A stretch of DNA of 44,563 nucleotides from Escherichia phage vB-Eco-KMB14: sequence record OR424384.1, one strand, 5' to 3'. The position numbers and the translations under genes were made by a program. Below the pieces are notes generated by a model. That model made no database searches and had not been told where the DNA came from. It saw only the letters and a list, made by a program, of their open reading frames with translations. Of the stretch, positions 8,242 through 44,563 are shown piece by piece (position 1 is the stretch's first letter; each line of letters starts with the position of its first letter).

Positions 8242-8402
8242 TGGAAATTATTAAACCAGTATTGAATATCGGTATTGAGATCCTATTCATGCTTGTGATC
8301 GCAGATTATGCTGCACGATATGGCTTCAAGAAAGCAGTGAAACTTATCGTTGCATCTGGTTTTATGATGTCAATGTTCTTTATTGTAACACGCCTTATCT
8401 AG
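8241..8402 (+). CDS. Small hydrophobic membrane protein (53 aa), not in the ORF track
   Basis: ATG overlaps the primase stop; RBS aggag; translation MEIIKPVLNIGIEILFMLVIADYAARYGFKKAVKLIVASGFMMSMFFIVTRLI. Confidence 0.45.
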   Translation: MEIIKPVLNIGIEILFMLVIADYAARYGFKKAVKLIVASGFMMSMFFIVTRLI

Positions 8403-8415
8403 TGTATTTATCAGG

Positions 8416-8446
8416 GCTTGTCTCACATGTGAGACAGGCTCTTATT
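8416..8446 (+). terminator. Conserved palindrome hairpin (GTCTCACATGTGAGAC core) followed by a T-rich tract
   Basis: gcttgtctcacatgtgagacaggc then tcttatt; one of seven copies of the same palindrome. Confidence 0.45.
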
Positions 8447-8474: not shown

Positions 8475-9158
8475 ATGTATAAATTAGTATTGAATGTAGG
8501 TGATTATGTTCGTAACATCAATGAAGCCTCACGTCGTTATCGTTGCCGTGGTGTAGTGGCTCGTGTAAGTGAGAACATGTATCATGTAGAATATGATGAT
8601 GGTATTAAGGCTTCTTATCACAAGAAAACCGCACATAAATATCTTGAAAAGGTTGTAGAGGTAAACAATCAATGTAAGTGCATACATGATGAGGTTTGCG
8701 ATAAATGTGCTCGCCAGATGCTTAAGAATTTCCTAGCCCCTCTTTATTATGGTGCTGGTCCTCAAACACTAGCAGAGTACATGGCAGAAAAGAAAACCAC
8801 ACTCAAGAAAGAGCGTCGCAATGTAATCACTGGTAAGACTCAAAGTGAGATGATTAAGCAATGTGGCACTGCATTAGGTGTTACACAGTTCAATACTCGT
8901 GCATTGGGTAAATCCACAGGGCAAGCTATGGTGAAAATTGGTGAAGCTATGATGCACCCAAATGTGCCTGTGCGAATCTTGGATGTTGACCATGCAATCA
9001 CAGAGCATGGCACACCACGGCGTGTAGCTAATAATCATTTCGCCGACACTATAGAAGGTATTATTCGTAAGCAAGGGTTGAAGGGTCTTCACATCTTAAA
9101 TGGTGAAGAATTACTGTACCTACCTATCGTTACTGAAGAAACATACGTGAATATCTAA
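8475..9158 (+). CDS. Hypothetical protein (227 aa)
   Basis: ATG at 8475 follows RBS ggag; the ORF-track start at 8469 is TTG. Confidence 0.7.
   Translation: MYKLVLNVGDYVRNINEASRRYRCRGVVARVSENMYHVEYDDGIKASYHKKTAHKYLEKVVEVNNQCKCIHDEVCDKCARQMLKNFLAPLYYGAGPQTLAEYMAEKKTTLKKERRNVITGKTQSEMIKQCGTALGVTQFNTRALGKSTGQAMVKIGEAMMHPNVPVRILDVDHAITEHGTPRRVANNHFADTIEGIIRKQGLKGLHILNGEELLYLPIVTEETYVNI
9037..9057 (+). promoter_or_regulatory. Phage-RNAP promoter-like sequence inside a CDS (ATTTCGCCGACACTATAGAAG)
   Basis: Core GACACTATAGAAG conserved; upstream part diverges. Confidence 0.3.
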
Positions 9159-9387: not shown

Positions 9388-9553
9388 ACATAGTCTTAGA
9401 ATGTTCGATGGTCATGAAGACCTGCAAGCCAAGATTACTAACCAAGCCTTCCTGTTCGCACAGTTAACTATGGCTGAGGCCAAGAAGAATAGTCTCACTC
9501 GTGAACAGGTTATCAAGGAAAGTGAAGTGAAACGTAAGATTCGCAGTCGATAA
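9377..9553 (+). CDS. Small hypothetical protein (58 aa), not in the ORF track
   Basis: ATG overlaps the end of the preceding ORF; the ORF ends just before a terminator-like hairpin. Confidence 0.35.
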   Translation: MQNKHSLRMFDGHEDLQAKITNQAFLFAQLTMAEAKKNSLTREQVIKESEVKRKIRSR

Positions 9554-9560
9554 GTCAAGG

Positions 9561-9590
9561 GTTGTCTCACGTGTGAGACAGCCTTTTATC
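9561..9590 (+). terminator. Conserved palindrome hairpin (GTCTCACGTGTGAGAC) plus T-run; rho-independent terminator-like
   Basis: gttgtctcacgtgtgagacagcc followed by ttttatc. Confidence 0.5.
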
Positions 9591-12630: not shown

Positions 12631-12891
12631 ATGATTAAATACACTGCTTATCAGTTAACTAAAGACCATAAGATAGGTATTGAGGTTAAGGCTTGGGAGC
12701 GAGGTCATATCTCTGGAGTAATAGAGGTGCGTTCCAAGGAAGGTATGATGATTAGAAGACACTTTAGTTTCGCTAAATCTACTTGTAAGCATTTAACAGA
12801 GGAACAATTCTTACATCATATTATTAACAATATTAAAGCTATCCAGCCTTATGCCAAGCAAGTTGTAGGTAATGTCACAGTAGTACATTGA
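12631..12891 (+). CDS. Hypothetical protein (86 aa)
   Basis: RBS aaggaa; its last 21 nt are part of the duplicated 105-bp unit. Confidence 0.6.
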   Translation: MIKYTAYQLTKDHKIGIEVKAWERGHISGVIEVRSKEGMMIRRHFSFAKSTCKHLTEEQFLHHIINNIKAIQPYAKQVVGNVTVVH

Positions 12892-12911
12892 TTTACTGGA
12901 CACTATAGAAG
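12891..12911 (+). promoter_or_regulatory. Phage-RNAP promoter (ATTTACTGGACACTATAGAAG), copy 1 of the duplicated unit
   Basis: Exact consensus. Confidence 0.7.
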
Positions 12912-13082
12912 GAAAGCCTAGATAATCTAGGTTTATAAGGTAGTATAGGTAATTAAGTAAATATAGGAGATATAAGCTATAGGTTCTGCCGTTATGGCTG
13001 GTATGTCTTCTATTGGTAGTATGTTTACAGGCAGCGGCTGCTGCACCGCTGCCTGTAAACATAATGTCACAGTAGTACATTG

Positions 13083-13103
13083 ATTTACTGGACACTATAG
13101 AAG
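13083..13103 (+). promoter_or_regulatory. Phage-RNAP promoter, copy 2 of the duplicated unit, driving the 13170 gene
   Basis: Exact consensus; followed by the leader and RBS ataggaga. Confidence 0.7.
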
Positions 13104-13169
13104 GAAAGCCTAGATAATCTAGGTTTATAAGGTAGTATAGGTAATTAAGTAAATATAGGAGATATAAAC

Positions 13170-27639: not shown

Positions 27640-28361
27640 TGGCTATAGGTTCTGCCGTTATGGCTGGTATGTCTTCTATTGGTAGTATGTTTACAGGCAG
27701 CGGTGCAGCAGCCGCTGCTGGAGGTGCTGCCGCAGGTGGCGGAGGCTTGCTAGGTTCTCTAGGTGGCTTCCTAAGCGGCTCTACTGCTGGCTTCTCTAAT
27801 GCTGGGCTTCTTGGTGCTGGCCTTCAAGGTTTAGGCTTGATTGGTGATCTCTTTGGTGGAAGTGATGAAGCCAAGGCAATGAAGAAAGCACAAGAAGAAC
27901 AGTGGCGGCAGCAACTTATTGCTACACAAGAAGCATACAAAACAGTAGCAGATGCAGAGCGTTCTGCTGCTAAACAATATCATGCAGATGCAATAAGCAA
28001 TCAGGCTTCACTACTACAGCAGCGAGCACAGGTTGCATTACTAGCAGGTGCTACTGGTACTGGTGGTAACTCTGTATCTTCTATGCTGAATGACTTAGCA
28101 GCAGAGGGCGGGAGGAACCAGAGTACAATTATTGATAACTATGAGAATCAGAAGATTAACTTCACCAATCAGCTTAAGTCTATCCAGCGAGGTGGACAGA
28201 TGCAGATGCGTGAGTTTAAGAAGCCTTCTGCCGTGAGCACCTTGGTGCAAGGTATACCGAGTCTGGCATCTGCCTATGTAACAGGTAGTAAGTCCGGCAT
28301 GGCTTTAGGTAAAGCTTTAACTGATTCTCGTACATATTCATCTGGAACAAGAGGTATTTAA
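27639..28361 (+). CDS. Internal virion protein A (Gly/Ala-rich N-terminus), 240 aa
   Basis: ATG at 27639 follows RBS ggaggg. Its 5' end (27642-27711) is the source of the ectopic insert at 12976-13062. Confidence 0.7.
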   Translation: MAIGSAVMAGMSSIGSMFTGSGAAAAAGGAAAGGGGLLGSLGGFLSGSTAGFSNAGLLGAGLQGLGLIGDLFGGSDEAKAMKKAQEEQWRQQLIATQEAYKTVADAERSAAKQYHADAISNQASLLQQRAQVALLAGATGTGGNSVSSMLNDLAAEGGRNQSTIIDNYENQKINFTNQLKSIQRGGQMQMREFKKPSAVSTLVQGIPSLASAYVTGSKSGMALGKALTDSRTYSSGTRGI

Positions 28362-31309
28362 TGGCAATTGAGCGACAAGCAGTACAAGGTCTGCCACAAG
28401 TGCAGGCCACTTCTCCTAATGTCATGACCTTTGCACCTCAGCAAGTTGGAGGTGTGGAGGCTGGCGTAGCTTCTACCTCCGGTAGTCGATTTATCGAAGA
28501 CCTTATTCGAGCAGCCAGTAGTGTAGCTGATGTTACCACGGGTATCCTTAATCAGAAGATTGAGGAGGATAAGGTTGTTCAAATGGAACGGGCATATAAT
28601 GGATTAATGCCCTCTGAGGATGCAACTCGTGGTGGCGCTCGTGCTAACATGCTTGTCAAAGCTCAACTGCTAGCTAATGATGAAGCAGCACGAATGAAAG
28701 ACATGGCTACTCGTTTCCAAGGAACGGATGACGAGTGGACACAACTTATGGTTGACTCTCGTAATGAGATGCAGAATAAGCTGTTCCAGCAATACCCTGA
28801 GTTGCAAGGTGACAAAGATACTATGCGTATGGTCACTAATGTCTTCCAAGAACAGCAGCCTCAGATTTGGGCTACACGAACCCAGCATAAACTTGACCGT
28901 GAACAAGCAGACCGTGAGGATACCTTTGACGGGCGAGTGGCTTCTACTTGGGATTCTAATATTGACCCTGAAGCCTCTGGCTATGCTTTACAGGAACGAA
29001 TCCGCGAAGGTCTTACTCAAGGATTACTACCTGAACAGATGCACAAGAAGTTAGTCCAGCGAGCAATTTCACTTGCACAAGGCGGTGATGTTAGCATGGC
29101 TGAAGCCCTGAAGTATGTGAAGGACGATAAGGGTGTTTCTGTTTATGCTAAGAATCCACAGCTTATCACAGCCATCACTAGTGGTAATGCAGTTTGGGCT
29201 AGGAATAATGTAGCTGATGTAACTCGTATGTCTTTCGAAGTTAAAGAATCATACCTTGCAGGTGATTTAACTGATGAAGAATTGTTGGAACGAGCACAGC
29301 ACATTAATAATCTGACAGGTAACTCTGTCTTCTCTAACCCAGAACTAGAGGCACTGATGCGCCAACGAGCTAAGCAGAATGCAGAGCTAGGTGCAATGCA
29401 GGATATGCGCCGTGAGCTTTACTCCGACCGCCTGACTGGCTTCCAAGGTAAGACTGATAAAGAGAAGAAGGCTTACATTGATGTTATCAAACAAGATAGC
29501 CAACTTTATGCAGACCAGCAAATCAAACAACGTGGCTTGGACCCTTACAGTCAAGAGGCTGAAGCTATTCGTGGTGCAGTGGAAGTGCAGCGCCTACAAT
29601 TCATGAACTCCAAAGGCTTAGTGGATGATACCTTTGAGTCTCGTATCAAAGCCATGGAATCTATGCTATCTCCTGAGCACTTTGCCAAGGGCGAACCACA
29701 AGAGTTGATGACTATTCGCCAGTTGTGGGAACAGTTGCCAGAAGAGAGCCGAGGTGTCTTTGGTGACACGGTGAATGGCTACATGGATAACTACAACACT
29801 GCACTACAAATGGGAGAGACACCTTTGCAGGCTGCAAGGTTTGCGCGTGAAGCACAGCAGAAATTCTCTCGTACTGAGAAGGAAACCAAGAAGTTCAACT
29901 CAGCTATTGGAGATGCACTGGATGAGGTATCTGGTGCTGGCTGGTTCGATGGTAAAACCGAAGTGTCAGACTTAGGTAAAGCTATTGCAGAAGAGGAGTT
30001 ACGAGCTAAGGCTAATATGCTGTGGTCTAGTGGTATGCGTAACATGGATTCCATCAAGAAGGCTTTAATTACTTGGGGCAATAAACGCTACACTCAAACA
30101 GAGGATGCAAAGACTTCCGGTGGCTATTTCATTAAAGGTGATTACACTTCTGCATCTGATATGCTTATGTCAGTTGGGAAAGGCGTAAATCCTACCGATG
30201 TACCTCTGGCGCTTGGTAGGTATGTAGAAACACAGATGCCAGAATTGAAGAAGGAGCTTCAAGAGTGGGAAACTAAAGATGATATATACATTGATTACAA
30301 TGAACAGAAAGGTACTTTCGTGATTCGTGCTGGTGCAGCAGGTCGCCCTCTTTCTGGAGTAATCCCTGTAACCTCTTTAGATACCACTTCACTACTAGAT
30401 TCTGCCTATCAGAAGAAAGTAGAGGAACGAGATAAAGGCGAGTATGTTCACCCTTATCGTACAGATATTGGTGCACAAGAGCCTATGCCAGCTAAACCAA
30501 CTGCCAAAGATATTGGTAAATTTGGACTAGCTAACTTCCTCATGTCTTCTGCTTTTGCTTCTGGTGAGAATCTGCCTTCTAACTTCGAGATTAACTATCG
30601 AGGTAATATGCAACAATTCTATGACAAGCTAGCTATGGATGAGAATAAAGATAAAGTTGGCTTTAATAAGGCAACTGGAACCTTTACTCCATATAAAGAT
30701 GCTCACGGTGAGTCTATCGGTTACGGTCATTTCTTAACGGAAGAAGAGAAGCGAAACGGGTATATTAAGATTGGTGATGAACTAGTTCCCTATCGAGGGT
30801 CTATGTCTCAGCTTACAGAGAGCAAGGCTCGCGCTCTTATGGAGCAAGATGCCAAGAAGCATGTGCCTCCTACTCGTGACTGGAAGATTCCGTTTGACCA
30901 GATGCATCCTGCACAGCAACGTGGCTTGCTGGATTTAACCTACAATTTAGGTAAAGGTGGAATCCAGAACTCACCGCGTGCTCTTGCTGCATTCAAAGCT
31001 GGTAAGCTTACGGAAGGCTTTATCGAAATGCTGGGCACTGCATCAAGTGAAGGTAAGCGTATCCCTGGTCTACTGAAGCGACGCGCTGAGGCATACAATA
31101 TGGCATCTGCTGGTGGTGTGCCTAAGATTACCGAAGTGGAGACTCGTGAAGATGGCTCCATGTGGGTTAGGTTTGGTGGACCTATGCCAGCAGGTTCTGT
31201 CTCGGCATGGATTCATAAACGTATTGGCGCGGATGGTTGGTATCAGGTTTATGAGGCTGCACCTACCAAGTTAGCTAAAGGTTCTAAGGTAGGTAAATTT
31301 AAGTTGTAG
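28361..31309 (+). CDS. Internal virion protein B with C-terminal lysozyme-like (T4-lysozyme/GH24-type) domain, 982 aa
   Basis: C-terminal segment YKDAHGESIGYGH...LLDLTYNLGKGG resembles the catalytic region of T4-type lysozymes. Confidence 0.75.
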   Translation: MAIERQAVQGLPQVQATSPNVMTFAPQQVGGVEAGVASTSGSRFIEDLIRAASSVADVTTGILNQKIEEDKVVQMERAYNGLMPSEDATRGGARANMLVKAQLLANDEAARMKDMATRFQGTDDEWTQLMVDSRNEMQNKLFQQYPELQGDKDTMRMVTNVFQEQQPQIWATRTQHKLDREQADREDTFDGRVASTWDSNIDPEASGYALQERIREGLTQGLLPEQMHKKLVQRAISLAQGGDVSMAEALKYVKDDKGVSVYAKNPQLITAITSGNAVWARNNVADVTRMSFEVKESYLAGDLTDEELLERAQHINNLTGNSVFSNPELEALMRQRAKQNAELGAMQDMRRELYSDRLTGFQGKTDKEKKAYIDVIKQDSQLYADQQIKQRGLDPYSQEAEAIRGAVEVQRLQFMNSKGLVDDTFESRIKAMESMLSPEHFAKGEPQELMTIRQLWEQLPEESRGVFGDTVNGYMDNYNTALQMGETPLQAARFAREAQQKFSRTEKETKKFNSAIGDALDEVSGAGWFDGKTEVSDLGKAIAEEELRAKANMLWSSGMRNMDSIKKALITWGNKRYTQTEDAKTSGGYFIKGDYTSASDMLMSVGKGVNPTDVPLALGRYVETQMPELKKELQEWETKDDIYIDYNEQKGTFVIRAGAAGRPLSGVIPVTSLDTTSLLDSAYQKKVEERDKGEYVHPYRTDIGAQEPMPAKPTAKDIGKFGLANFLMSSAFASGENLPSNFEINYRGNMQQFYDKLAMDENKDKVGFNKATGTFTPYKDAHGESIGYGHFLTEEEKRNGYIKIGDELVPYRGSMSQLTESKARALMEQDAKKHVPPTRDWKIPFDQMHPAQQRGLLDLTYNLGKGGIQNSPRALAAFKAGKLTEGFIEMLGTASSEGKRIPGLLKRRAEAYNMASAGGVPKITEVETREDGSMWVRFGGPMPAGSVSAWIHKRIGADGWYQVYEAAPTKLAKGSKVGKFKL

Positions 31310-31321
31310 TATCTAACTCAA

Positions 31322-31350
31322 GGCTTGTCTCACATGTGAGACAGGTCTTT
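31322..31350 (+). terminator. Conserved palindrome hairpin (GTCTCACATGTGAGAC) plus T-rich tract
   Basis: gcttgtctcacatgtgagacaggtc followed by tttat. Confidence 0.45.
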
Positions 31351-31373
31351 ATGATAGGCACTATGGAGGAATT

Positions 31374-34300: not shown

Positions 34301-34682
34301 TATTGGTCGAGAAGACCAAGATGAATATTTGGAAGAGAAGTTATCGCCTAAAGGGTTGGCCTTTGGTGCAATGGGTATGATGAGTACAACTGCTGTATTT
34401 AGTCTAGGTGGAGATTTCTTAGGTGGCCTAGGTGTTCTACCTTCTGAGTTAGTACAATCCCGTTATGAGGCTGGCTTTCAGACTAAGGGTTTGATAGACC
34501 AAATACCACTAGTAGGTGTTGGTCAAGATGCATATCGTTTAGCAGATTCTATAACTAAATACGCAGAGGGTGATACAGAAGGTGTAGATGTGGCACGTAG
34601 GGCTTTACGCTTAGTGCCTCTAGCTAATGTAATAGGAATCCAGAACGCATTGCGTTATGGCTTAGATGAACTGGAGGATTAA
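31374..34682 (+). CDS. Internal virion protein C (gp16-like ejection protein), 1102 aa
   Basis: Very large ORF following the other internal virion proteins; RBS ggagga. Confidence 0.75.
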   Translation: MEQDIKTNWAGYVQSTPEPFSIEAAPVSAPTIRQRNELQEQVLEAKADADILGAVGAAFQNEWLAFGGKRWYDRATADFTPQPDFEIQPEQREALRFKYGTDMMQTITEGVHSEDELNFRIQNADEDLERNKRIAQAGWVGSVATIGAAVLDPVGWVASIPTGGAAKVGLVGRAVRGAIAAGVSNAAIESVLVQGDMTRDLDDIMVALGSGMAMGGVIGAVARGRATKLSEQGDDRAASIVRSADAGDRYVRAVADDSIGAMRVKGEEVLTEGAFDVSSKGEDLLKTLQREGNAIDMTPRRWAGTLSALGTVVHSSQDASVRGLGARLFESPQGLGMQKASASLMQNTNLNRLKSADMNRFNDGFDLWLKENNINPVAGHTNSHYVQQYNEKVWEAVRIGMDESTPKSIRMAAEGQQAMYREALALRQRSGESGFEKVKADDKYMPDIFDSMKARRQFSMHDKEDIIELFSRAYQNGSRKVPKEVADDIARAQVNRVADATLTGQLSFEKAMSGQTKAEYEALMRKAGFSDEEIEKMVEALDNKETRDNISNRAKMSLGLDVTQEYNGIRMRDFMNTNVEELTDNYMKEAAGGAALARQGFSTYQAALNAIDLVERNARNAAKDTKAHAQFEAESAKIRQSEPDYKKAQEKIEELKKRLKLKEKDEAAGLAIDEEIRQMREGLRLIMGKSIDSNPQDLSTKMLRRGRDITGVLRLGQMGFAQLGELANFMGEFGIAATTMALGKQFRFTSKALRNGDGFFRDKNLAEVERMVGYIGEDNWLTTKGARPDEFGDVTTVRGMMAHFDQSMNSIRRAQTNLSLFRMAQGSLERMTNRQIALSFIDHLEGKKIIPQKKLEELGLTQEFMTNLQKHYDANSKGSGLLGFDTMPYAMGETLANAIRRKSGLIIQRNFIGDEGIWMNKALGKTFAQLKSFSLVSGEKQFGRGIRHDKIGLAKKTAYGFALGSIVYAAKAYVNSIGREDQDEYLEEKLSPKGLAFGAMGMMSTTAVFSLGGDFLGGLGVLPSELVQSRYEAGFQTKGLIDQIPLVGVGQDAYRLADSITKYAEGDTEGVDVARRALRLVPLANVIGIQNALRYGLDELED

Positions 34683-35644
34683 TGAGTTATACTTTCACAG
34701 AACATATAGCCAACGGTACGCAAGTAACCTATCCCTTTAGCTTTGCTGGTAGGGATAAAGGTTATCTTCGTGCCTCAGATGTGATAGTGGAGTCTCTTCA
34801 AGGTAACACTTGGATTGAGGTTACATCTGGCTGGCAACTAACTGGCACGCACCAGATTACTTTTGATGTAGCACCAGTTGCAGGTTTGAAGTTCCGTATT
34901 AGAAGGGAAGTACAAAAGGAGTATCCATACGCTGAGTTTGACCGTGGTGTTACCTTGGATATGAAGTCTTTAAATGGTTCTTTCATTCATATACTGGAGA
35001 TTACACAGGAGTTACTTGACGGGTTTTATCCAGAAGGATACTTCATTAAACAGAATGTAAGCTGGGGCGGCAATAAGATTACTGATTTGGCTGATGGCAC
35101 AAATCCGGGAGATGCAGTAAATAAAGGGCAGCTTGATGCCATCGACAAGAAGCATACAGATTGGAACGCCAAACAGGACATTGAGATTGCTGGCCTTAAG
35201 GCTGGTATGACTTCTGGTATTGCGCACAGAACTGTTCCTTGGTACACGATAGCCCAAGGTGGTGAGATTTCCGTAAAACCACCTTATGAATTTCAAGATG
35301 CACTAGTTTTCCTTAATGGGGTGTTGCAGCACCAAATTGTAGGCGCATACTCTATAAGCAACAACACTATCACTTTCGCAGAGCCGCTTGTGGCTGGTAC
35401 AGAGGTGTATGTGCTGATTGGTAGTCGTGTGGCTACATCTGAACCTAATATTCAGTTAGAGTTGAACTTTGACTTAGTAGAAGGCCAACAAGTAGTACAG
35501 ATTGGCTCTGCATTTAAGTACATTGAGGTCTACCTTGATGGATTATTACAACCTAAACTTGCTTATCAGGTAGACGGTGACATTGTTACTTTCTCAGAGG
35601 GAGTGCCAGAATGCCGGATGACTGCTAAGATTATCACAGCATAA
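34682..35644 (+). CDS. Tail fibre/tailspike adaptor protein (T7 gp17 N-terminal-domain-like), 320 aa
   Basis: N-terminus MSYTFTEHIANGTQVTYPFSF resembles the tail-attachment domain of T7-type tail fibres; no receptor-binding domain present. Confidence 0.7.
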   Translation: MSYTFTEHIANGTQVTYPFSFAGRDKGYLRASDVIVESLQGNTWIEVTSGWQLTGTHQITFDVAPVAGLKFRIRREVQKEYPYAEFDRGVTLDMKSLNGSFIHILEITQELLDGFYPEGYFIKQNVSWGGNKITDLADGTNPGDAVNKGQLDAIDKKHTDWNAKQDIEIAGLKAGMTSGIAHRTVPWYTIAQGGEISVKPPYEFQDALVFLNGVLQHQIVGAYSISNNTITFAEPLVAGTEVYVLIGSRVATSEPNIQLELNFDLVEGQQVVQIGSAFKYIEVYLDGLLQPKLAYQVDGDIVTFSEGVPECRMTAKIITA

Positions 35645-38048: not shown

Positions 38049-38186
38049 GAAGGCCCAGATAATAAGAGAAAATAATAGGTAATATATAGGTTAACCTAGG
38101 TTATATAGATATGCCTTAGTATGGGTGTACTCCTGTACACCCTATTCATTACTACCTTACTATATTTACATAATAGGAGAGAGACA

Positions 38187-38465
38187 ATGGCTAATGATTA
38201 TAGTAGTCAACCATTAACAGGTAAGTCTAAGAGAAAGCAGGTACAACCTGTAAGTGAAGAACTAATGCTTCCGGTAATCAAAAAAGAGGAAGCTAGTAAG
38301 AAAAGCAATGTCATTAATGATGCCACCAAATCAGGTAAACAGAAAGGGGCCATGGTGTGCCTTGAAGTGGAAGGTGGTGTATTGAAGATTGCTATCGCGG
38401 TTGATGGCAAAGAAGATTCAGAGTGGAAGTTAGTAACAGTGGAACCAGCTGTTAACCCAGTTTAA
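38187..38465 (+). CDS. Small hypothetical protein, paralog 1 (92 aa)
   Basis: ATG at 38187 follows RBS aggaga; shares the SGKQKGAMVxLE block with the next ORF. Confidence 0.6.
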   Translation: MANDYSSQPLTGKSKRKQVQPVSEELMLPVIKKEEASKKSNVINDATKSGKQKGAMVCLEVEGGVLKIAIAVDGKEDSEWKLVTVEPAVNPV

Positions 38466-38483: not shown

Positions 38484-38777
38484 ATGGCTAAATATGGTAC
38501 TACAGGTTCTGTTACTGGTCAGGCTTTTCGAGTAAAAGCAGTACAAACTATTGCAACGGCAATCCCTATGCCTGTTGTTAAAGAAGCAGACCTTAAGAGT
38601 AAAGATCACCCTATCAACATCAAACACCTGTCAGGTAAGCAGAAAGGTGCAATGGTTGCTCTTGAGAAAGATGACACAACCATGCATATTGCTGTTGCAC
38701 GTGGCAGTGAACCAACAGACCCATGGGATGTAACTGGTATGGAAGGGGCAGCTGTCACTCCAGCAGGTGGAGAATAA
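38484..38777 (+). CDS. Small hypothetical protein, paralog 2 (97 aa)
   Basis: RBS aaggagg; shared block HLSGKQKGAMVALEKDD...IAVA. Confidence 0.65.
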   Translation: MAKYGTTGSVTGQAFRVKAVQTIATAIPMPVVKEADLKSKDHPINIKHLSGKQKGAMVALEKDDTTMHIAVARGSEPTDPWDVTGMEGAAVTPAGGE

Positions 38778-39379: not shown

Positions 39380-39593
39380 GTTTCTAGAAGTTCTGGCAGG
39401 TCTTATTGGCCTGCTTGTCTCTGCTAAGAAGAAACAAGAAGAGAAGGAGGCACAAAGTGAAGCGAATCATGTTAGTGACAACCCTTCTGATTGGTTCGCT
39501 GACCACTTCCGGGTGTCAGCAGGCGTTACCAGAGAAAGCAATGGTGAAACCTCTGAGGCCGACGCTGACGGAAGTTTACGAGGTAGACGATAA
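39372..39593 (+). CDS. Possible i-spanin-like protein (73 aa, GTG start, N-terminal TM)
   Basis: N-terminal hydrophobic segment FLEVLAGLIGLLVSA; contains the lipoprotein ORF in another frame. Shorter than typical Rz proteins. Confidence 0.3.
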   Translation: MNKFLEVLAGLIGLLVSAKKKQEEKEAQSEANHVSDNPSDWFADHFRVSAGVTRESNGETSEADADGSLRGRR

Positions 39594-39666
39594 GGTCTGC
39601 TTTAGTAAGCCTGACGCTACAAAATTAGGTTTGTATATTCTTTCGCTGGAACGCGGATATAATTAA
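39457..39666 (+). CDS. Putative o-spanin lipoprotein (Rz1-like), 69 aa from GTG
   Basis: Perfect AGGAGG 6 nt before GTG 39457; signal MKRIMLVTTLLIGSLTTSGC with a lipobox-like TSGC; Pro-rich mature region. Confidence 0.5.
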   Translation: MKRIMLVTTLLIGSLTTSGCQQALPEKAMVKPLRPTLTEVYEVDDKVCFSKPDATKLGLYILSLERGYN

Positions 39667-39695
39667 TACATAGCTTTATGTATCAGTGTCTTACG

Positions 39696-39716
39696 ATTTA
39701 CTGGACACTATAGAAG
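39696..39716 (+). promoter_or_regulatory. Phage-RNAP promoter upstream of the tailspike genes
   Basis: Exact consensus ATTTACTGGACACTATAGAAG. Confidence 0.7.
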
Positions 39717-39797
39717 AGATAAGATAGCGCCGTTCTTTTGAGCGGCCTATTACTAGCCAATCTTCATAGGGAGGGTTGGAAAGTAATAGGAGATAGC

Positions 39798-41696
39798 ATG
39801 GCTAAATTAACCAAACCTAATACTGAAGGAATCTTGCATAAAGGACAATCGTTGTATGAGTACCTTGATGCGAGAGTTTTAACATCAAAGCCGTTTGGTG
39901 CTGCAGGTGACGCCACTACTGATGATACGGAGGTTATAGCTGCTTCATTAAACTCTCAGAAAGCTGTCACAGTCTCAGATGGTGTATTCTCTAGTTCTGG
40001 TATTAATAGTAATTACTGTAACTTAGACGGTAGGGGTAGTGGCGTGCTAAGTCACCGTTCCAGTACAGGTAACTACTTAGTATTTAACAATCTACGTGCA
40101 GGTCGCTTAAGTAATATTACGGTAGAAAGTAATAAGGCGACTGATACAACTCAGGGACAGCAGGTATCTCTTGCTGGTGGAAGTGATGTTACTGTAAGTG
40201 ACGTTAACTTCTCAAACGTTAAAGGTACTGGTTTCAGTTTAATCGCATACCCTAATGATGCGCCACCTGATGGACTTATGATTAAAGGCATTCGAGGTAG
40301 CTATTCCGGCTATGCTACTAATAAGGCAGCCGGGTGTGTACTTGCTGACTCCTCAGTTAACTCCCTCATAGATAACGTCATTGCTAAGAACTACCCTCAG
40401 TTCGGAGCAGTAGAGTTGAAAGGTACAGCCAGTTATAACATAGTCAGTAATGTTATAGGGGCAGATTGCCAGCATGTAACTTACAACGGCACTGAAGGGC
40501 CAATAGCTCCTTCTAATAACCTTATCAAGGGGGTGATAGCTAATAACCCTAAGTATGCAGCGGTTGTTGCAGGCAAAGGAAGTACGAACTTAATCTCAGA
40601 CGTGCTCGTAGATTACTCAACTTCTGATGCTAGGCAGGCTCATGGTGTTACCGTAGAGGGGTCTGATAACGTCATAAATAATGTGCTTATGTCAGGATGT
40701 GATGGTACTAACTCTTTAGGACAAGGGCAGACTGCTACAATTGCACGCTTTATAGGTACAGCTAATAACAACTATGCGTCTGTATTTCCTAGCTACAGTG
40801 CTACAGGTGTTATTACTTTCGAATCCGGCTCTACCCGTAACTTCGTAGAGGTAAAGCACCCTGGTAGGAGAAACGACATTCTCAGTTCTGCTAGTACTAT
40901 TGACGGTGCAGCTACTATTGACGGCACTAATAATAGTAACGTAGTGCACGCACCTGCCTTAGGGCAGTACATAGGTAGTATGTCAGGTAGGTTCGAATGG
41001 CGGATTAAGTCCATGTCACTCCCTTCAGGCGTTCTTACTTCTGCTGATAAGTACAGAATGCTTGGGGATGGTGCTGTGTCATTAGCTTTAGGTGGGGGAA
41101 CTTCTTCTCAAGTTCGCCTATTTACTTCTGATGGTACTTCTCGGACAGTGTCCCTCACCAACGGTAACGTGCGTCTTTCTACCAGTAGCACAGGCTTTTT
41201 GCAGTTAGGTGCTGATGCAATGACCCCAGATAGTACTGGTACATATGCATTAGGTTCCGCCAGACGGGTATGGTCTGGCGGTTTTACTCAAGCAGCATTC
41301 ACTGTTACCTCAGATGCTCGGTGTAAAACAGAACCTCTTACTATCTCAGATGCCTTACTGGATGCTTGGTCTGAAGTTGACTTTGTGCAGTTTCAGTATT
41401 TGGATCGTGTTGAGGAGAAGGGTGCAGACTCAGCTAGATGGCACTTCGGTATCATCGCTCAGCGAGCTAAGGAGGCTTTCGAACGTCACGGTATAGATGC
41501 ACATCGCTATGGCTTCTTGTGCTTCGACAGTTGGGATGATGTATACGAGGAAGATGCCACTGGCTCTCGTAAACTGATTACACCAGCAGGTTCCCGCTAC
41601 GGTATTCGTTACGAGGAAGTACTGATATTAGAGGCTGCGTTGATGCGGAGGACTATCAAGCGTATGCAGGAAGCACTAGCTTCCCTGCCTAAGTGA
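39798..41696 (+). CDS. Tailspike 1: beta-helix depolymerase-like protein with C-terminal intramolecular chaperone (peptidase S74-like) domain, 632 aa
   Basis: ATG at 39798 follows RBS aggaga. Gly/Ser/Thr/Asn-rich repetitive body; C-terminal SDARCKTE...HFGIIAQ...YEEVLILEAAL resembles the auto-cleaving chaperone domain of endosialidase/K5-lyase-type tailspikes. Confidence 0.8.
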   Translation: MAKLTKPNTEGILHKGQSLYEYLDARVLTSKPFGAAGDATTDDTEVIAASLNSQKAVTVSDGVFSSSGINSNYCNLDGRGSGVLSHRSSTGNYLVFNNLRAGRLSNITVESNKATDTTQGQQVSLAGGSDVTVSDVNFSNVKGTGFSLIAYPNDAPPDGLMIKGIRGSYSGYATNKAAGCVLADSSVNSLIDNVIAKNYPQFGAVELKGTASYNIVSNVIGADCQHVTYNGTEGPIAPSNNLIKGVIANNPKYAAVVAGKGSTNLISDVLVDYSTSDARQAHGVTVEGSDNVINNVLMSGCDGTNSLGQGQTATIARFIGTANNNYASVFPSYSATGVITFESGSTRNFVEVKHPGRRNDILSSASTIDGAATIDGTNNSNVVHAPALGQYIGSMSGRFEWRIKSMSLPSGVLTSADKYRMLGDGAVSLALGGGTSSQVRLFTSDGTSRTVSLTNGNVRLSTSSTGFLQLGADAMTPDSTGTYALGSARRVWSGGFTQAAFTVTSDARCKTEPLTISDALLDAWSEVDFVQFQYLDRVEEKGADSARWHFGIIAQRAKEAFERHGIDAHRYGFLCFDSWDDVYEEDATGSRKLITPAGSRYGIRYEEVLILEAALMRRTIKRMQEALASLPK

Positions 41697-41703
41697 GCGA
41701 CAG

Positions 41704-41726
41704 GCAGTGCGTAAGCACTGCTTTTC
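41704..41726 (+). terminator. Possible weak terminator hairpin between the two tailspike genes
   Basis: gcagtgc-gtaa-gcactgc followed by ttttc. Confidence 0.3.
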
Positions 41727-41781
41727 ACGCAACTTTTCTTAAAGGTTATCATGGTGGTAGCCTTTCAGAAAAGGAGGTTAC

Positions 41782-43965
41782 ATGCTTCAAAGATTAGGGG
41801 CAATGTTTGTTCGGTACAAAAATAAAGTAGGTAATGCTATCGAGCGTACACTACAAAGTAAATTACAGGATGTAGTCAGTGTAAAGGATTATGGTGCTAT
41901 TGGTGATGGAGTATATCGTTCACTTGGTGCTAAATTTACCACGTTAAGTATGGCACAAGTAGTATACCCGCATGCGGAAAGTTTAACTCAATCGCAAGAT
42001 TGGGCGGCTATTCAGGCTGCACTTAATTCTCACTCAAAAGTGTACATTCCAGCAGGTAAGTACATGCTATCTGATACCATTGAGATGCGCGGCGGTCAAA
42101 CTCTGCAAGGTGACGGTATTGATTCTTGGGTTGCAGGTTATGCTGGGTTTGTAAAAGATAATCAAGGCACTCACCTCATAATGGTGGGAGATGGAAATAA
42201 GAAGTATACATTAGATCATGTATCTAACTTCGATGTAGAAGGTGGTGTCATAGACAACCCAGCTAAGAGTGACGCTTATACTGCCACGGCACCTTCCCCT
42301 AATTACTCATTTACTAACTTCACTAATGCTAACGCCTCTGGTGCACAACGTGCTACATTGAAATCTTTCAGCGTAGCATTACGTTGCACAGGTCACGGTG
42401 GTGTTTACCTTCGTGACTTCCGTATTGTGCCTAATCACAGAGGGCAAGAAGGTTATAAGGATGAGTTGTCAACTGCATTAGGGGACGCATGGGATGTAGG
42501 TATTTGGCTGGAGAATACATCTGACTCAGTGTTATCTTCTGTGCAAGCAGTAGGTTACTGGCGCATTGCAGGTGTTATGAAGACTTGTATACCACAAGAG
42601 GGTTCCTTTGTTGGTGGAGAGCGTGATAGGATATACAATTGCACATTACAAGGTTATCGTGGCTTCTTAGCACGTTCGCATGATACTTACCAAGTAGAAG
42701 AAGTATCAGGTAACACTGTATCGATTAAGTGGTCTGCATCTCACACTTTCGAACCTTCTGGTAAAGTTCGTATCCAAGGGAAAGACCGTAGTTATACTAG
42801 CCTGTCTGTATCTGGTGACAAATTAGTTTTCAATGGTATTGACGATGTATCAGGTATTAATACCAATAGCTATGTGAGAGTTTCAGGGTCTTCATTCGGA
42901 ATGTCTGCTACTCAACTAAATAACACATACATCGCTGCATTAAACCATCATGCTCGCTTGCCAGCAACCTCTAATCTTTTAGATAATAGGTTTTCTACTT
43001 CGGCAGCTTGCTATGAAGTTGCAGGTGAACCAATTCGTGCCATAAAATTATCTAACTGCACTGTCATTACTTGGGATGACATCTTAGGTATGACTGGTGG
43101 TATTAGGGACTTCCAGACGACAGATACTTACTTCGAGTCTCAGCCTTTCCGTACTTCTGTGCAAGGCTTGGCAAGCACCACACAACCTGCTGGTTCTCGC
43201 ATGATTGCACTTCGTGGACGTCAAGGTTCTAAAACTACAGGCTATCAAGCTATCGGTTGTACTTATGGGCCGGGTGTAGACCTAAGCCCTCGTTATGAAA
43301 GCGATGTATCTCGTTACACAACTTCCGGTGGTATGTTCAATCCAAGAGAAGATTTGAACACAACTAAGCAGTTACCAATGAGGCAAGACGCTACTGAGCT
43401 ATCTTCTACTTCTGCCTTATTCCTTACACATGCTGTAGGTGGGAAGGCCTATGTTGGCGCTACCTCTGGTGATGCAACGCTTCAATCTAGAACTGGATCA
43501 TTGAATATCCAATCAGGACTTCGTGTACGCATTGGTGGCACTGATGGTAGTGGTTGGTACATTGCTGACAGTGCTAAGTTGACACCTACTGCTGACAATG
43601 CAAGGGCTTGTGGACAGCCTAATGGACGATGGACTGTTGTCTATGCTGTTAATGGTACAATCCAGACTTCTGATGGTAGATTCAAGGAAATCCTTGAGAT
43701 TGAACAGGCAGAACTTGATGCTGGTCTTGAATTATCAGCAAACCTAATTAAGTATCGGTGGAATGGGGAAGATAAAATTCACTTTGGTTGCATAGCACAA
43801 GAAGTGATGTTAATACTGGAGAAACATGGCCTAGACCCATTACAATATGATATGGTTCAGTATGATGAGGAGGCAGACATCTTTGGGGTAAACTATGCTG
43901 AACTCAACAGCTTCTGTATTGCAGCATTATCGAGGAAGCTAAATGCCATTAATCAGATCAGTTAA
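41782..43965 (+). CDS. Tailspike 2: pectate-lyase-fold depolymerase-like protein with C-terminal intramolecular chaperone domain, 727 aa
   Basis: Strong RBS aaggagg; N-terminal DYGAIGDG motif typical of pectate-lyase-type phage depolymerases; C-terminal SDGRFKE...HFGCIAQ...YAELNSFCIAAL is paralogous to the C-terminus of tailspike 1. Confidence 0.8.
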   Translation: MLQRLGAMFVRYKNKVGNAIERTLQSKLQDVVSVKDYGAIGDGVYRSLGAKFTTLSMAQVVYPHAESLTQSQDWAAIQAALNSHSKVYIPAGKYMLSDTIEMRGGQTLQGDGIDSWVAGYAGFVKDNQGTHLIMVGDGNKKYTLDHVSNFDVEGGVIDNPAKSDAYTATAPSPNYSFTNFTNANASGAQRATLKSFSVALRCTGHGGVYLRDFRIVPNHRGQEGYKDELSTALGDAWDVGIWLENTSDSVLSSVQAVGYWRIAGVMKTCIPQEGSFVGGERDRIYNCTLQGYRGFLARSHDTYQVEEVSGNTVSIKWSASHTFEPSGKVRIQGKDRSYTSLSVSGDKLVFNGIDDVSGINTNSYVRVSGSSFGMSATQLNNTYIAALNHHARLPATSNLLDNRFSTSAACYEVAGEPIRAIKLSNCTVITWDDILGMTGGIRDFQTTDTYFESQPFRTSVQGLASTTQPAGSRMIALRGRQGSKTTGYQAIGCTYGPGVDLSPRYESDVSRYTTSGGMFNPREDLNTTKQLPMRQDATELSSTSALFLTHAVGGKAYVGATSGDATLQSRTGSLNIQSGLRVRIGGTDGSGWYIADSAKLTPTADNARACGQPNGRWTVVYAVNGTIQTSDGRFKEILEIEQAELDAGLELSANLIKYRWNGEDKIHFGCIAQEVMLILEKHGLDPLQYDMVQYDEEADIFGVNYAELNSFCIAALSRKLNAINQIS

Positions 43966-44092
43966 GCAAAGTGCTGTACGCCAGAACACAGAAGAACTTA
44001 TTCAATCAGGACGTGACCCTAAGCAGGCTTATGCCATTGCCAAGGATGTTCAACGTCGTGCCATGAAGAAACCTTCTGCATCTTCTGCGTAA
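43943..44092 (+). CDS. Small basic hypothetical protein (49 aa), not in the ORF track
   Basis: ATG follows aggaag; overlaps the tailspike 2 stop. Confidence 0.3.
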   Translation: MPLIRSVKQSAVRQNTEELIQSGRDPKQAYAIAKDVQRRAMKKPSASSA

Positions 44093-44162
44093 GCAGGTTA
44101 ATATCTTAGTATAAACAAGGGCAGACTTAGGTTTGTCCTTAGTGTATTCCAAAGGAGGTAAC

Positions 44163-44291
44163 ATGCTGAAAGATGGTTGGGTTTCATATGACCCTACAGA
44201 CCCTAAGAATTGGCTACAGGTTATCGCTATAGCTTGTGCAGGTAGCCTATTGGCTGCCCTGATGTATTCATTATGGATGTACACAAAGTAA
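44163..44291 (+). CDS. Small membrane protein (42 aa), not in the ORF track
   Basis: Strong RBS aaggagg 6 nt upstream; hydrophobic segment LQVIAIACAGSLLAALMYSLW. Confidence 0.45.
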   Translation: MLKDGWVSYDPTDPKNWLQVIAIACAGSLLAALMYSLWMYTK

Positions 44292-44299
44292 CCAAAGTC

Positions 44300-44563
44300 A
44301 AAATTTTGATGTAGGCGTGTGTCAGCTCTCTCGCCCTCGCCCTCGCCGGGTTGTCCCCATATGGGGTTGCTCGGCGGTTGGCCTAGGAATTGGGCGGGGC
44401 TGGGCCGATTTCATCGGGTGGGCCGAGGTCTGCCGAGGCTTGCTCTTAGTGGGAGCACAAGGAGAACGCCTAGGAAGCGCTAGGGCACGCCTTAGTATTG
44501 GACAAGGTGATTGCCTTAGTGCAACCGCTTAGGGCTTACACGGGCCGTTTTAGGGCCATTCCT
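44300..44563. repeat. GC-rich right-end region with GCCCTC repeats, palindrome CCCCATATGGGG and CTTAG-type repeats
   Basis: Composition shifts sharply from the rest of the genome: ctcgccctcgccctcgccgg, ccccatatgggg at 44355-44366, then gccttagt/gcttaggg motifs resembling the left-end array. Confidence 0.45.

Follow-up and report, generated by a model that had tools for sequence, protein, structure and literature searches.

The stretch analysed here (the window) comprises 44,563 nucleotides (nt) of Escherichia phage vB-Eco-KMB14 (record OR424384.1), and its 3' region carries a candidate receptor-recognition module, which is the subject of this work: a gene for an adaptor of 320 residues (34682-35644) and, further downstream, two large tailspike genes in tandem, spike 1 at 39798-41696 (632 residues) and spike 2 at 41782-43965 (727 residues). 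These, and the other parts of the module placed below on the window, lie on the plus strand. An earlier reading of the same letters (the original prediction) had placed two different depolymerase-type tailspikes at these positions, and both open reading frames (ORFs) are indeed intact and preceded by good ribosome-binding sites, the ATG of spike 1 following AGGAG and that of spike 2 following GGAGG. Over more than 90% of their length, the first 25 kb of the window share 93-96% nucleotide identity with Vectrevirus genomes (among them LI10P3, T205P5, and K1E), and the window is on this basis assigned to the K1-5-like phages of that genus (Autographiviridae, Molineuxvirinae). Related contigs run on from the window end into the window start, indicating that the window is essentially a whole genome of ~44.5 kb. 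Its 3' region retains the K1-5 gene order: an internal virion protein, the adaptor, the holin and terminase subunits, two small paralogous ORFs, the endolysin and spanins, the two spike ORFs, and two further small ORFs.

Spike 1 is identified by its homologies as KflA itself, the gp46 lyase of the K5 (heparosan) capsule. It is identical to K1-5 gp46 at 624 of 632 residues (98.7% protein identity), its gene shows 98% nucleotide identity to those of K1-5, K5, and AAPEc6, the PDB entries 2x3h ("K5 lyase", residues 1-505) and 9vvr both match it at E=0, and PHROG 14895 matches it over its full length. The original prediction recognised neither the characterised K1-5 system nor KflA (PDB 2X3H). It had set the body of spike 1 apart from that of spike 2 by its richness in Gly, Ser, Thr, and Asn, and these four residues do make up 40.5% of it versus 23.8% across the ORFs of the genome. 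The chain of 2x3h ends in alignment with residue 505, and the mature enzyme is predicted to consist of residues 1-504 (39798-41309). Cleavage at S505 would take the calculated mass from 66.8 to 52.1 kDa, in agreement with the entry "67/mature form 52" for K1-5 ORF46 in a review table (PMC5380687), and this agreement supports processing at that residue. None of the eight substitutions relative to K1-5 gp46 falls at the Ser/Lys dyad discussed below.

The adaptor is the orthologue of K1-5 gp37 (318 of 320 residues identical, 99.4%) and matches PHROG 2710 (tail fiber) at E=1.8e-148. As had been predicted, it begins with a T7 gp17-like tail-binding domain (PF03906, residues 3-153, 27.2 bits against a cut-off of 25.2); this is followed by a spike-docking part, and there is no receptor-binding domain. 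In K1-5, gp37 serves as a two-site adaptor, with the K5 lyase docking via the peptide MAKLTKP and the second spike via MIQRLGSSLVK (Leiman 2007, as summarised in PMC6872550), and cryo-electron microscopy and genetics place both spikes on the virion (PMC6872550). Spike 1 starts with exactly this heptapeptide (39798-39818), and spike 2 with MLQRLGAMFVR (41782-41814), which is identical to the known undecapeptide at 6 of 11 positions and shows three further differences that are conservative (I/L, L/F, and K/R). Across a survey of 15 adaptor-containing loci, every position-2 ORF starts with M[IL]QRL, whatever its body; 12 related loci share this start. Residues 1-29 of spike 2 are of low confidence in AlphaFold monomer models, which is consistent with a peptide that orders upon docking. 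By analogy to K1-5, the near-identity of gp37 and gp46 together with the two docking peptides supports the dual-spike particle that had been proposed. A side observation on the same peptide concerns Salmonella phage SP6 (NC_004831.2, locus L008), where the RefSeq start of the second spike (VKMPNG..., locus position 8775) seems to lie 27 nt late; an in-frame ATG at 8748 adds the region 8748-8774 and yields MIQRLGSSLVKMPNG..., the conserved docking undecapeptide.

Both spikes end in a Peptidase_S74 chaperone domain (PF13884, gathering cut-off 22 bits). In spike 1 it spans residues 505-632 (41310-41696), with the profile matching residues 505-565 at 54.5 bits (E=1.5e-14), and in spike 2 residues 630-727 (43669-43965), with a match over 630-684 at 32.4 bits (E=1.1e-7). 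The original prediction had aligned the two C-termini with each other and likened them to auto-cleaving chaperones, and both points are borne out. BLASTP yields one significant alignment between the spikes, residues 462-583 against 587-701 (30% identity over 122 columns, E=9e-10), every other segment giving E>2, and the motif pairs SDARCK/SDGRFK, HFGIIAQ/HFGCIAQ, and GIDAHRY/GLDPLQY are present. The aligned portion takes in ~40 residues upstream of the cleavage site in addition to the predicted released segments of 128 residues (spike 1) and 98 residues (spike 2). Ser-Lys dyads five residues apart are intact in both (S505/K510 and S630/K635) and, in HMMER alignments, fall on S911A/K916 of endoNF (3gw6) and S1264A/K1269 of T5 pb1 (4uw8). 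In spike 1, Ser505 is predicted to be the scissile residue and nucleophile and Lys510 the base. The scissile serine of phage T5 is positioned by an Asp, an Arg, and a Thr (D1239, R1250, and T1263; PMC4690869); D605, R616, and T629 of spike 2 show identical spacing, and D478, R490, and T504 of spike 1 are offset by one to two residues relative to T5 and endoNF. We infer from these parallels that spike 2 would likewise release its chaperone autoproteolytically, cleavage at S630 converting a calculated 78.9-kDa precursor into a 67.8-kDa chain and an 11.2-kDa fragment.

The body of spike 2 is of a different kind. It contains the motif DYGAIGDG, and residues 32-152 (~41875-42237) match the pectate-lyase-like family PF12708 at 36 bits (cut-off 27), corresponding to the cap and first coils of a right-handed beta-helix tailspike. 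The contrast that had been drawn between the two bodies thus stands. In phmmer searches, residues 23-124 match gp27/gp61 of Pseudomonas phage phi297 (E=4e-19) and gp49 of LKA1 (E=3e-18), and the tailspikes of these two phages are the nearest solved relatives. AlphaFold monomer models were poor with 17 sequences (mean predicted local distance difference test score, pLDDT, 54.5) and, once the chaperone had been removed and the input raised to 46 sequences, reached a mean pLDDT of 61.2; these models show a beta-helix over residues ~30-450, in line with the predicted pectate-lyase-type fold. Foldseek returned ~80-column matches to V1-ATPase chains, and a six-stranded barrel inserted in the beta-helix of LKA1 gp49 is known to resemble residues 1-75 of a V-type ATPase (PMC5701251). 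These matches, taken with the likeness of the LKA1 barrel, point to an insertion architecture, with a putative beta-barrel domain at residues ~300-352 (~42679-42837), and spike 2 probably shares the beta-helix-plus-insertion layout of LKA1 gp49. Lyase and hydrolase chemistry are indistinguishable on the present data.

The same spike 2 recurs in other genomic settings. The unannotated Vectrevirus record LF31P3 encodes an ORF with 98.6% protein identity to it next to a wholly different spike 1 (MARLTRP..., 630 residues) that lacks an S74 domain. The IMG/VR contig L012 (44.7 kb) carries the same pair of K5 lyase and spike 2, at 94.9% nucleotide identity, and a further contig, L010, has spike 2 beside yet another upstream region. 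More distant homologues of the body, at 35-53% identity, are mostly Escherichia coli prophage tailspikes of 883-991 residues, plus a protein of phage YZ1. A profile search built on 17 homologues did not extend this family past ~50 close clusters, mostly from E. coli prophages, and an exact-sequence lookup of spike 2 in an assembly index returned no match.

The two spike genes appear to form one transcription unit. An SP6/K1-5-type phage RNA polymerase promoter at 39696-39718 matches ATTTACTGGACACTATAGAAGAG perfectly; nine such sites occur in the window against zero expected by chance, and record Y10025.2 of phage K5 has a promoter annotated at the homologous site. A scan with the phage promoter consensus found no site inside the spacer between the spikes, which, given the perfect upstream promoter, indicates co-transcription; sigma-70-like matches occurred only at chance level. 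The spacer itself (41697-41781, 85 nt) contains two RNA hairpins that are conserved. The first of them, hairpin 1 (41702-41723), combines a 9-bp stem with a GUAA loop and is followed by UUUUC; hairpin 2 (41733-41773) has stems of 7 and 11 bp separated by a 1x1 internal loop, and its 3' arm abuts the Shine-Dalgarno GGAGG at 41773-41777. The original prediction spoke of a weak hairpin between the genes, a description that has to be replaced: the minimum free energy of the spacer is -42.7 kcal/mol versus -22.6 +/- 3.0 for shuffled sequences (z=-6.65), and none of 200 shuffles was as stable. The element is kept in all 16 distinct relatives collected, including SP6 with its unrelated flanking spike genes, and 97% of the cells in their alignment preserve pairing as compared to 36-58% in slid controls. 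A scan of 39500-44563 against Rfam at E<=1 found no family. Scholl et al. reportedly noted as early as 2001 a shared intergenic region of 85 bases that contains two regions of symmetry.

Comparison of the relatives delimits exchangeable cassettes at both spike positions. On the left, the 5' untranslated region (UTR) at 39719-39797, near-identical in phage K5 and clearly conserved in SP6 despite unrelated downstream spike bodies, acts as the candidate homology linker of the position-1 cassette; in LF31P3 the homology to the window stops at 39811, ~14 nt inside the spike 1 ORF. On the right, the candidate linker of the position-2 cassette is a gp48-like ORF of 49 residues (43943-44092; PHROG 2423, E=4e-23), which shares its first 22 nt with the 3' end of spike 2. 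As it starts 22 nt ahead of the spike 2 stop, the last seven codons of any position-2 cassette are constrained. DNA homology to K1-5 ends at 41798 and returns at 43943, the counterpart of the annotated start of K1-5 gene 48, and spike 2 has only its N-terminal 43 residues (56% identity) and C-terminal 134 residues (29% identity) in common with K1-5 gp47. Conversely, spike 1 is kept with other second spikes in K1-5, K5, and the VEc3 group, and spike 2 with another spike 1 in LF31P3.

We are confident that these features together describe a K1-5-like receptor-recognition operon, with two spikes, self-cleaving chaperones, adaptor docking, and exchangeable cassettes. In this scheme a single phage promoter at 39696 would transcribe both tailspike genes across the conserved 85-nt spacer; spike 1 would degrade the K5 capsule, and spike 2 would represent an exchangeable depolymerase cassette similar to LKA1 gp49 and the phi297 tailspike. 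Each chain would fold and trimerise with its own Peptidase_S74 domain, Ser-Lys autoproteolysis at S505 or S630 would remove that domain, and mature trimers of ~52 and ~68 kDa per chain would dock via their N-terminal peptides on the two gp37 sites, giving a particle of dual enzymatic specificity. Recombination could replace one cassette independently of the other, with the 5' UTR, the spacer, and the beginning of gene 48 as the homology linkers. The scheme combines the homologies, domains, catalytic residues, cassette boundaries, and covarying conserved hairpins observed here with expectations for cleavage, docking, and the presence of both spikes in the virion that are drawn from the literature on K1-5, endoNF, and T5. 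Several points weigh against it. The processing, enzymatic activity, and virion presence of spike 2 are expected from homology. The sequence similarity between spike 2 and LKA1 gp49 is limited to the first ~100 residues and a short stretch of the insertion domain. The models of spike 2 are only moderate and leave residues ~454-563 unmodelled, so that no active site was located. Finally, a simple terminator scan flagged neither of the spacer hairpins, the U-run after hairpin 1 being just 4 nt long.

Two alternatives concern how the operon was assembled and what its spacer does. The original prediction had called the two chaperone domains paralogous, and true in-genome paralogues could have arisen through duplication of one spike gene or its 3' end. 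The domains do belong to one Pfam family, lie in neighbouring genes, and contain the sole significant similarity between the two spikes. Nevertheless, they are only ~30% identical and unequal in length (128 versus 98 residues), and the spike 2 domain is closer to T5 pb1 (E=2.8e-11) than to the K5-lyase type (E=6e-6) and shares 71% identity with a segment of NTNC80A, an unrelated phage. The spike 1 domain, for its part, has 45% identity to the chaperone of P0002, a protein with a body 53% identical to that of spike 2. P0002 is the closest non-identical homologue of the spike 2 body, and yet its chaperone resembles the K5-lyase type more than it does the domain of spike 2; this mismatch between body and chaperone indicates that enzymatic bodies and S74 domains reassort independently. 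The distance between the two domains of the window is about the same as that separating them from the domains of unrelated phages, and the S74 domain is found in both K1-5 spikes and in neither SP6 spike. The low identity, the affinity to T5 pb1, and the pairing in LF31P3 of the same spike 2 with a spike 1 lacking S74 argue that the domains came in separate cassettes. In-genome duplication is hence rejected, on the T5 pb1, P0002, and LF31P3 comparisons, as something we would find very surprising; the chaperone is best read from these comparisons as a shuffled sub-module that would arrive with each cassette. The role of the spacer is less settled. The hairpins might have no part in setting the spike ratio and be conserved merely as a recombination linker or as a generic element of mRNA processing or stability, an option we hold to be a serious minority view. 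The sequence of hairpin 2 hardly varies between E. coli and Salmonella phages with unrelated flanking genes, as expected of a homology arm, the cassette breakpoints fall at its edges, and with one adaptor site per spike type an unequal ratio is not obviously needed. On the other hand, three pairs of hairpin 1 are changed on both sides (e.g., U-A to C-G or G-C), and the changes in the nearly invariant hairpin 2 are one-sided and exclusively GU-compatible, a pattern that points to selection on RNA structure beyond the DNA sequence; with only 16 related sequences in the alignment, this covariation lends support but is not conclusive. Also counting against this option are the U-run that follows hairpin 1 and the adjacency of hairpin 2 to the ribosome-binding site. 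We would read hairpin 1 as a leaky terminator, or as a stabiliser of the 3' end, and hairpin 2 as a structure that takes part in processing or modulates translation.

The other two alternatives concern spike 2 itself, for which we favour as the most likely target a capsular (K) or other non-O polysaccharide of extraintestinal pathogenic E. coli (ExPEC). The receptor-binding protein (RBP) of phage YZ1, 43% identical to spike 2, occurs at >=95% identity in prophages of O102, O6, O1, and O153 strains and is placed among the RBPs most likely aimed at something other than O-antigen (PMC10408124). The position-2 spikes characterised in the genus are capsule enzymes, as exemplified by the K1 endosialidase. 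Spike 2 might instead cut the O-antigen of lipopolysaccharide, either after spike 1 has stripped the K5 capsule or on unencapsulated smooth strains. Of the two nearest solved relatives, LKA1 gp49 has been characterised as a lyase of O-antigen, which keeps such a target a real alternative; the other, the phi297 tailspike, is homologous to it. Some of the E. coli prophage homologues of the body, at 42% identity, also begin with a head-binding domain of the P22 type (PF09008), and tailspikes of this class usually read O-antigen; strain LF31, from which LF31P3 was isolated, is typed as B2, ST73, O6:H1, and is without an assigned K type among those typed. At only 42-43% identity, however, specificity is not transferable to spike 2 in either direction, and we regard the O-antigen as the less probable of the two targets while giving it appreciable weight. 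Spike 2 could also be a non-catalytic binder, or be decaying like the truncated first spike of K1E, a vestigial precedent within the genus (PMC5380687), which would leave the particle mono-specific; its unassigned active-site residues and the poor model over 454-563 would fit such a state. Yet the ORF is of full length and conserved at 98.6% in LF31P3, a contig that has diverged by ~5% in nucleotide sequence retains both spikes, many acidic and basic residues are invariant across 17 homologues down to 35% identity, and both the chaperone dyad and the docking peptide are intact. Loss of catalysis consequently strikes us as improbable.

The concept of adaptor-mounted dual spikes has been textbook biology of K1-5 and SP6 since 2001-2010. 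The adaptor, the docking peptides, the structure of the K5 lyase, and the S74 mechanism are already established, and the present locus leaves the concept unchanged. What it adds is a new natural combination within the K1-5 system, the K5 lyase together with a second depolymerase lacking prior characterisation, and a clean illustration of independent exchange, at three conserved linkers, of both spike positions and even of the chaperone sub-module. We further entertain, tentatively and as a joint proposition that we consider rather doubtful in its entirety, that spike 2 may be a depolymerase for a K antigen or another surface glycan of E. coli without a characterised phage enzyme, acting by LKA1-gp49-like lyase chemistry on a beta-helix with an inserted barrel, and that the spacer may be an RNA element (a partial terminator and/or an RNase III site) that sets the spike ratio in addition to being a recombination linker. 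If its target is identified, spike 2 could be of practical use in phage therapy or enzybiotic design against ExPEC.

Some further features of the window lie outside the spike operon. An exact 106-nt direct repeat (12870-12975 and 13062-13167) carries a phage promoter in each copy (12891 and 13083), and between the copies lie 24 nt and an exact ectopic duplicate of 62 nt from the 5' end of the gene for the internal virion protein (27642-27703). This 192-nt insert of the 12870-13167 region is missing from the relatives T147P1, LF31P3, and SP6, and is explained either by chimeric assembly or by a genuine duplication of the promoter together with a gene patch. Three 46-nt repeats (8400-8445, 9544-9589, and 31307-31352) form a family built on the perfect palindrome TTGTCTCACATGTGAGACAGG and probably represent intergenic hairpins that serve as terminators or RNase III-type sites. 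The tandem small ORFs at 38184-38465 and 38484-38777, the equivalents of K1-5 gp41 and gp42, have the common core GKQKGAMV...IA(I/V)A, and both match PHROG 2725. The label of that family, "acetyl-CoA acetyltransferase", looks to be a mistaken annotation that was carried into the SP6 RefSeq record. The end of the window (44300-44563) is G+C-rich and non-coding in appearance, and GCCCTCGCC and GGGC motifs recur in it. Between the two window ends, a direct terminal repeat of at least 40 nt was not found.

Among known systems, the closest is K1-5 itself (gp37 with the gp46 K5 lyase and the gp47 K1 endosialidase; Scholl 2001, Leiman 2007), which belongs to the same genus and has the same gene order and promoter, and whose 85-nt spacer differs from that of the window at 4 positions. 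The principal difference lies at position 2, where gp47 has a beta-propeller sialidase body and the window a beta-helix body instead. In SP6 (Zindervirus), the adaptor is 71% identical, the docking peptides MSLTKP and MIQRLGSSLVK are present, and the 5' UTR and two-hairpin spacer are conserved, with a compensatory change from U-A to C-G in hairpin 1; however, its two spikes lack S74 domains and have unrelated bodies, a P22-like endorhamnosidase and another. With endoNF (3GW6), T5 pb1 (4UW8), and the GA-1/phi29 appendages (Schwarzer 2007; Schulz 2010), both spikes share the Pfam family, the Ser-x4-Lys dyad, the upstream Asp, Arg, and Thr, and the placement of the domain after a trimeric stalk. 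Relative to endoNF and T5, the released segment predicted for spike 2 is short at 98 residues, and the upstream Asp and Arg of the K5 lyase are offset by 1-2 residues. LKA1 gp49, an O-specific polysaccharide lyase with Asp497, His499, and Arg329 as catalytic residues, and its homologue phi297 gp61 (4RU4 and 4RU5) differ from spike 2 in host and substrate, and spike 2 instead carries a docking peptide and an S74 chaperone. Finally, the type I tail fiber gp51 of Klebsiella phage Kp7 (7Y5S) offers the same overall plan, a beta-helix depolymerase with a related docking segment of ~40 residues at its N-terminus and an S74 domain at its C-terminus, but it differs in genus, host, and body, its sequence similarity to spike 2 being confined to the termini.

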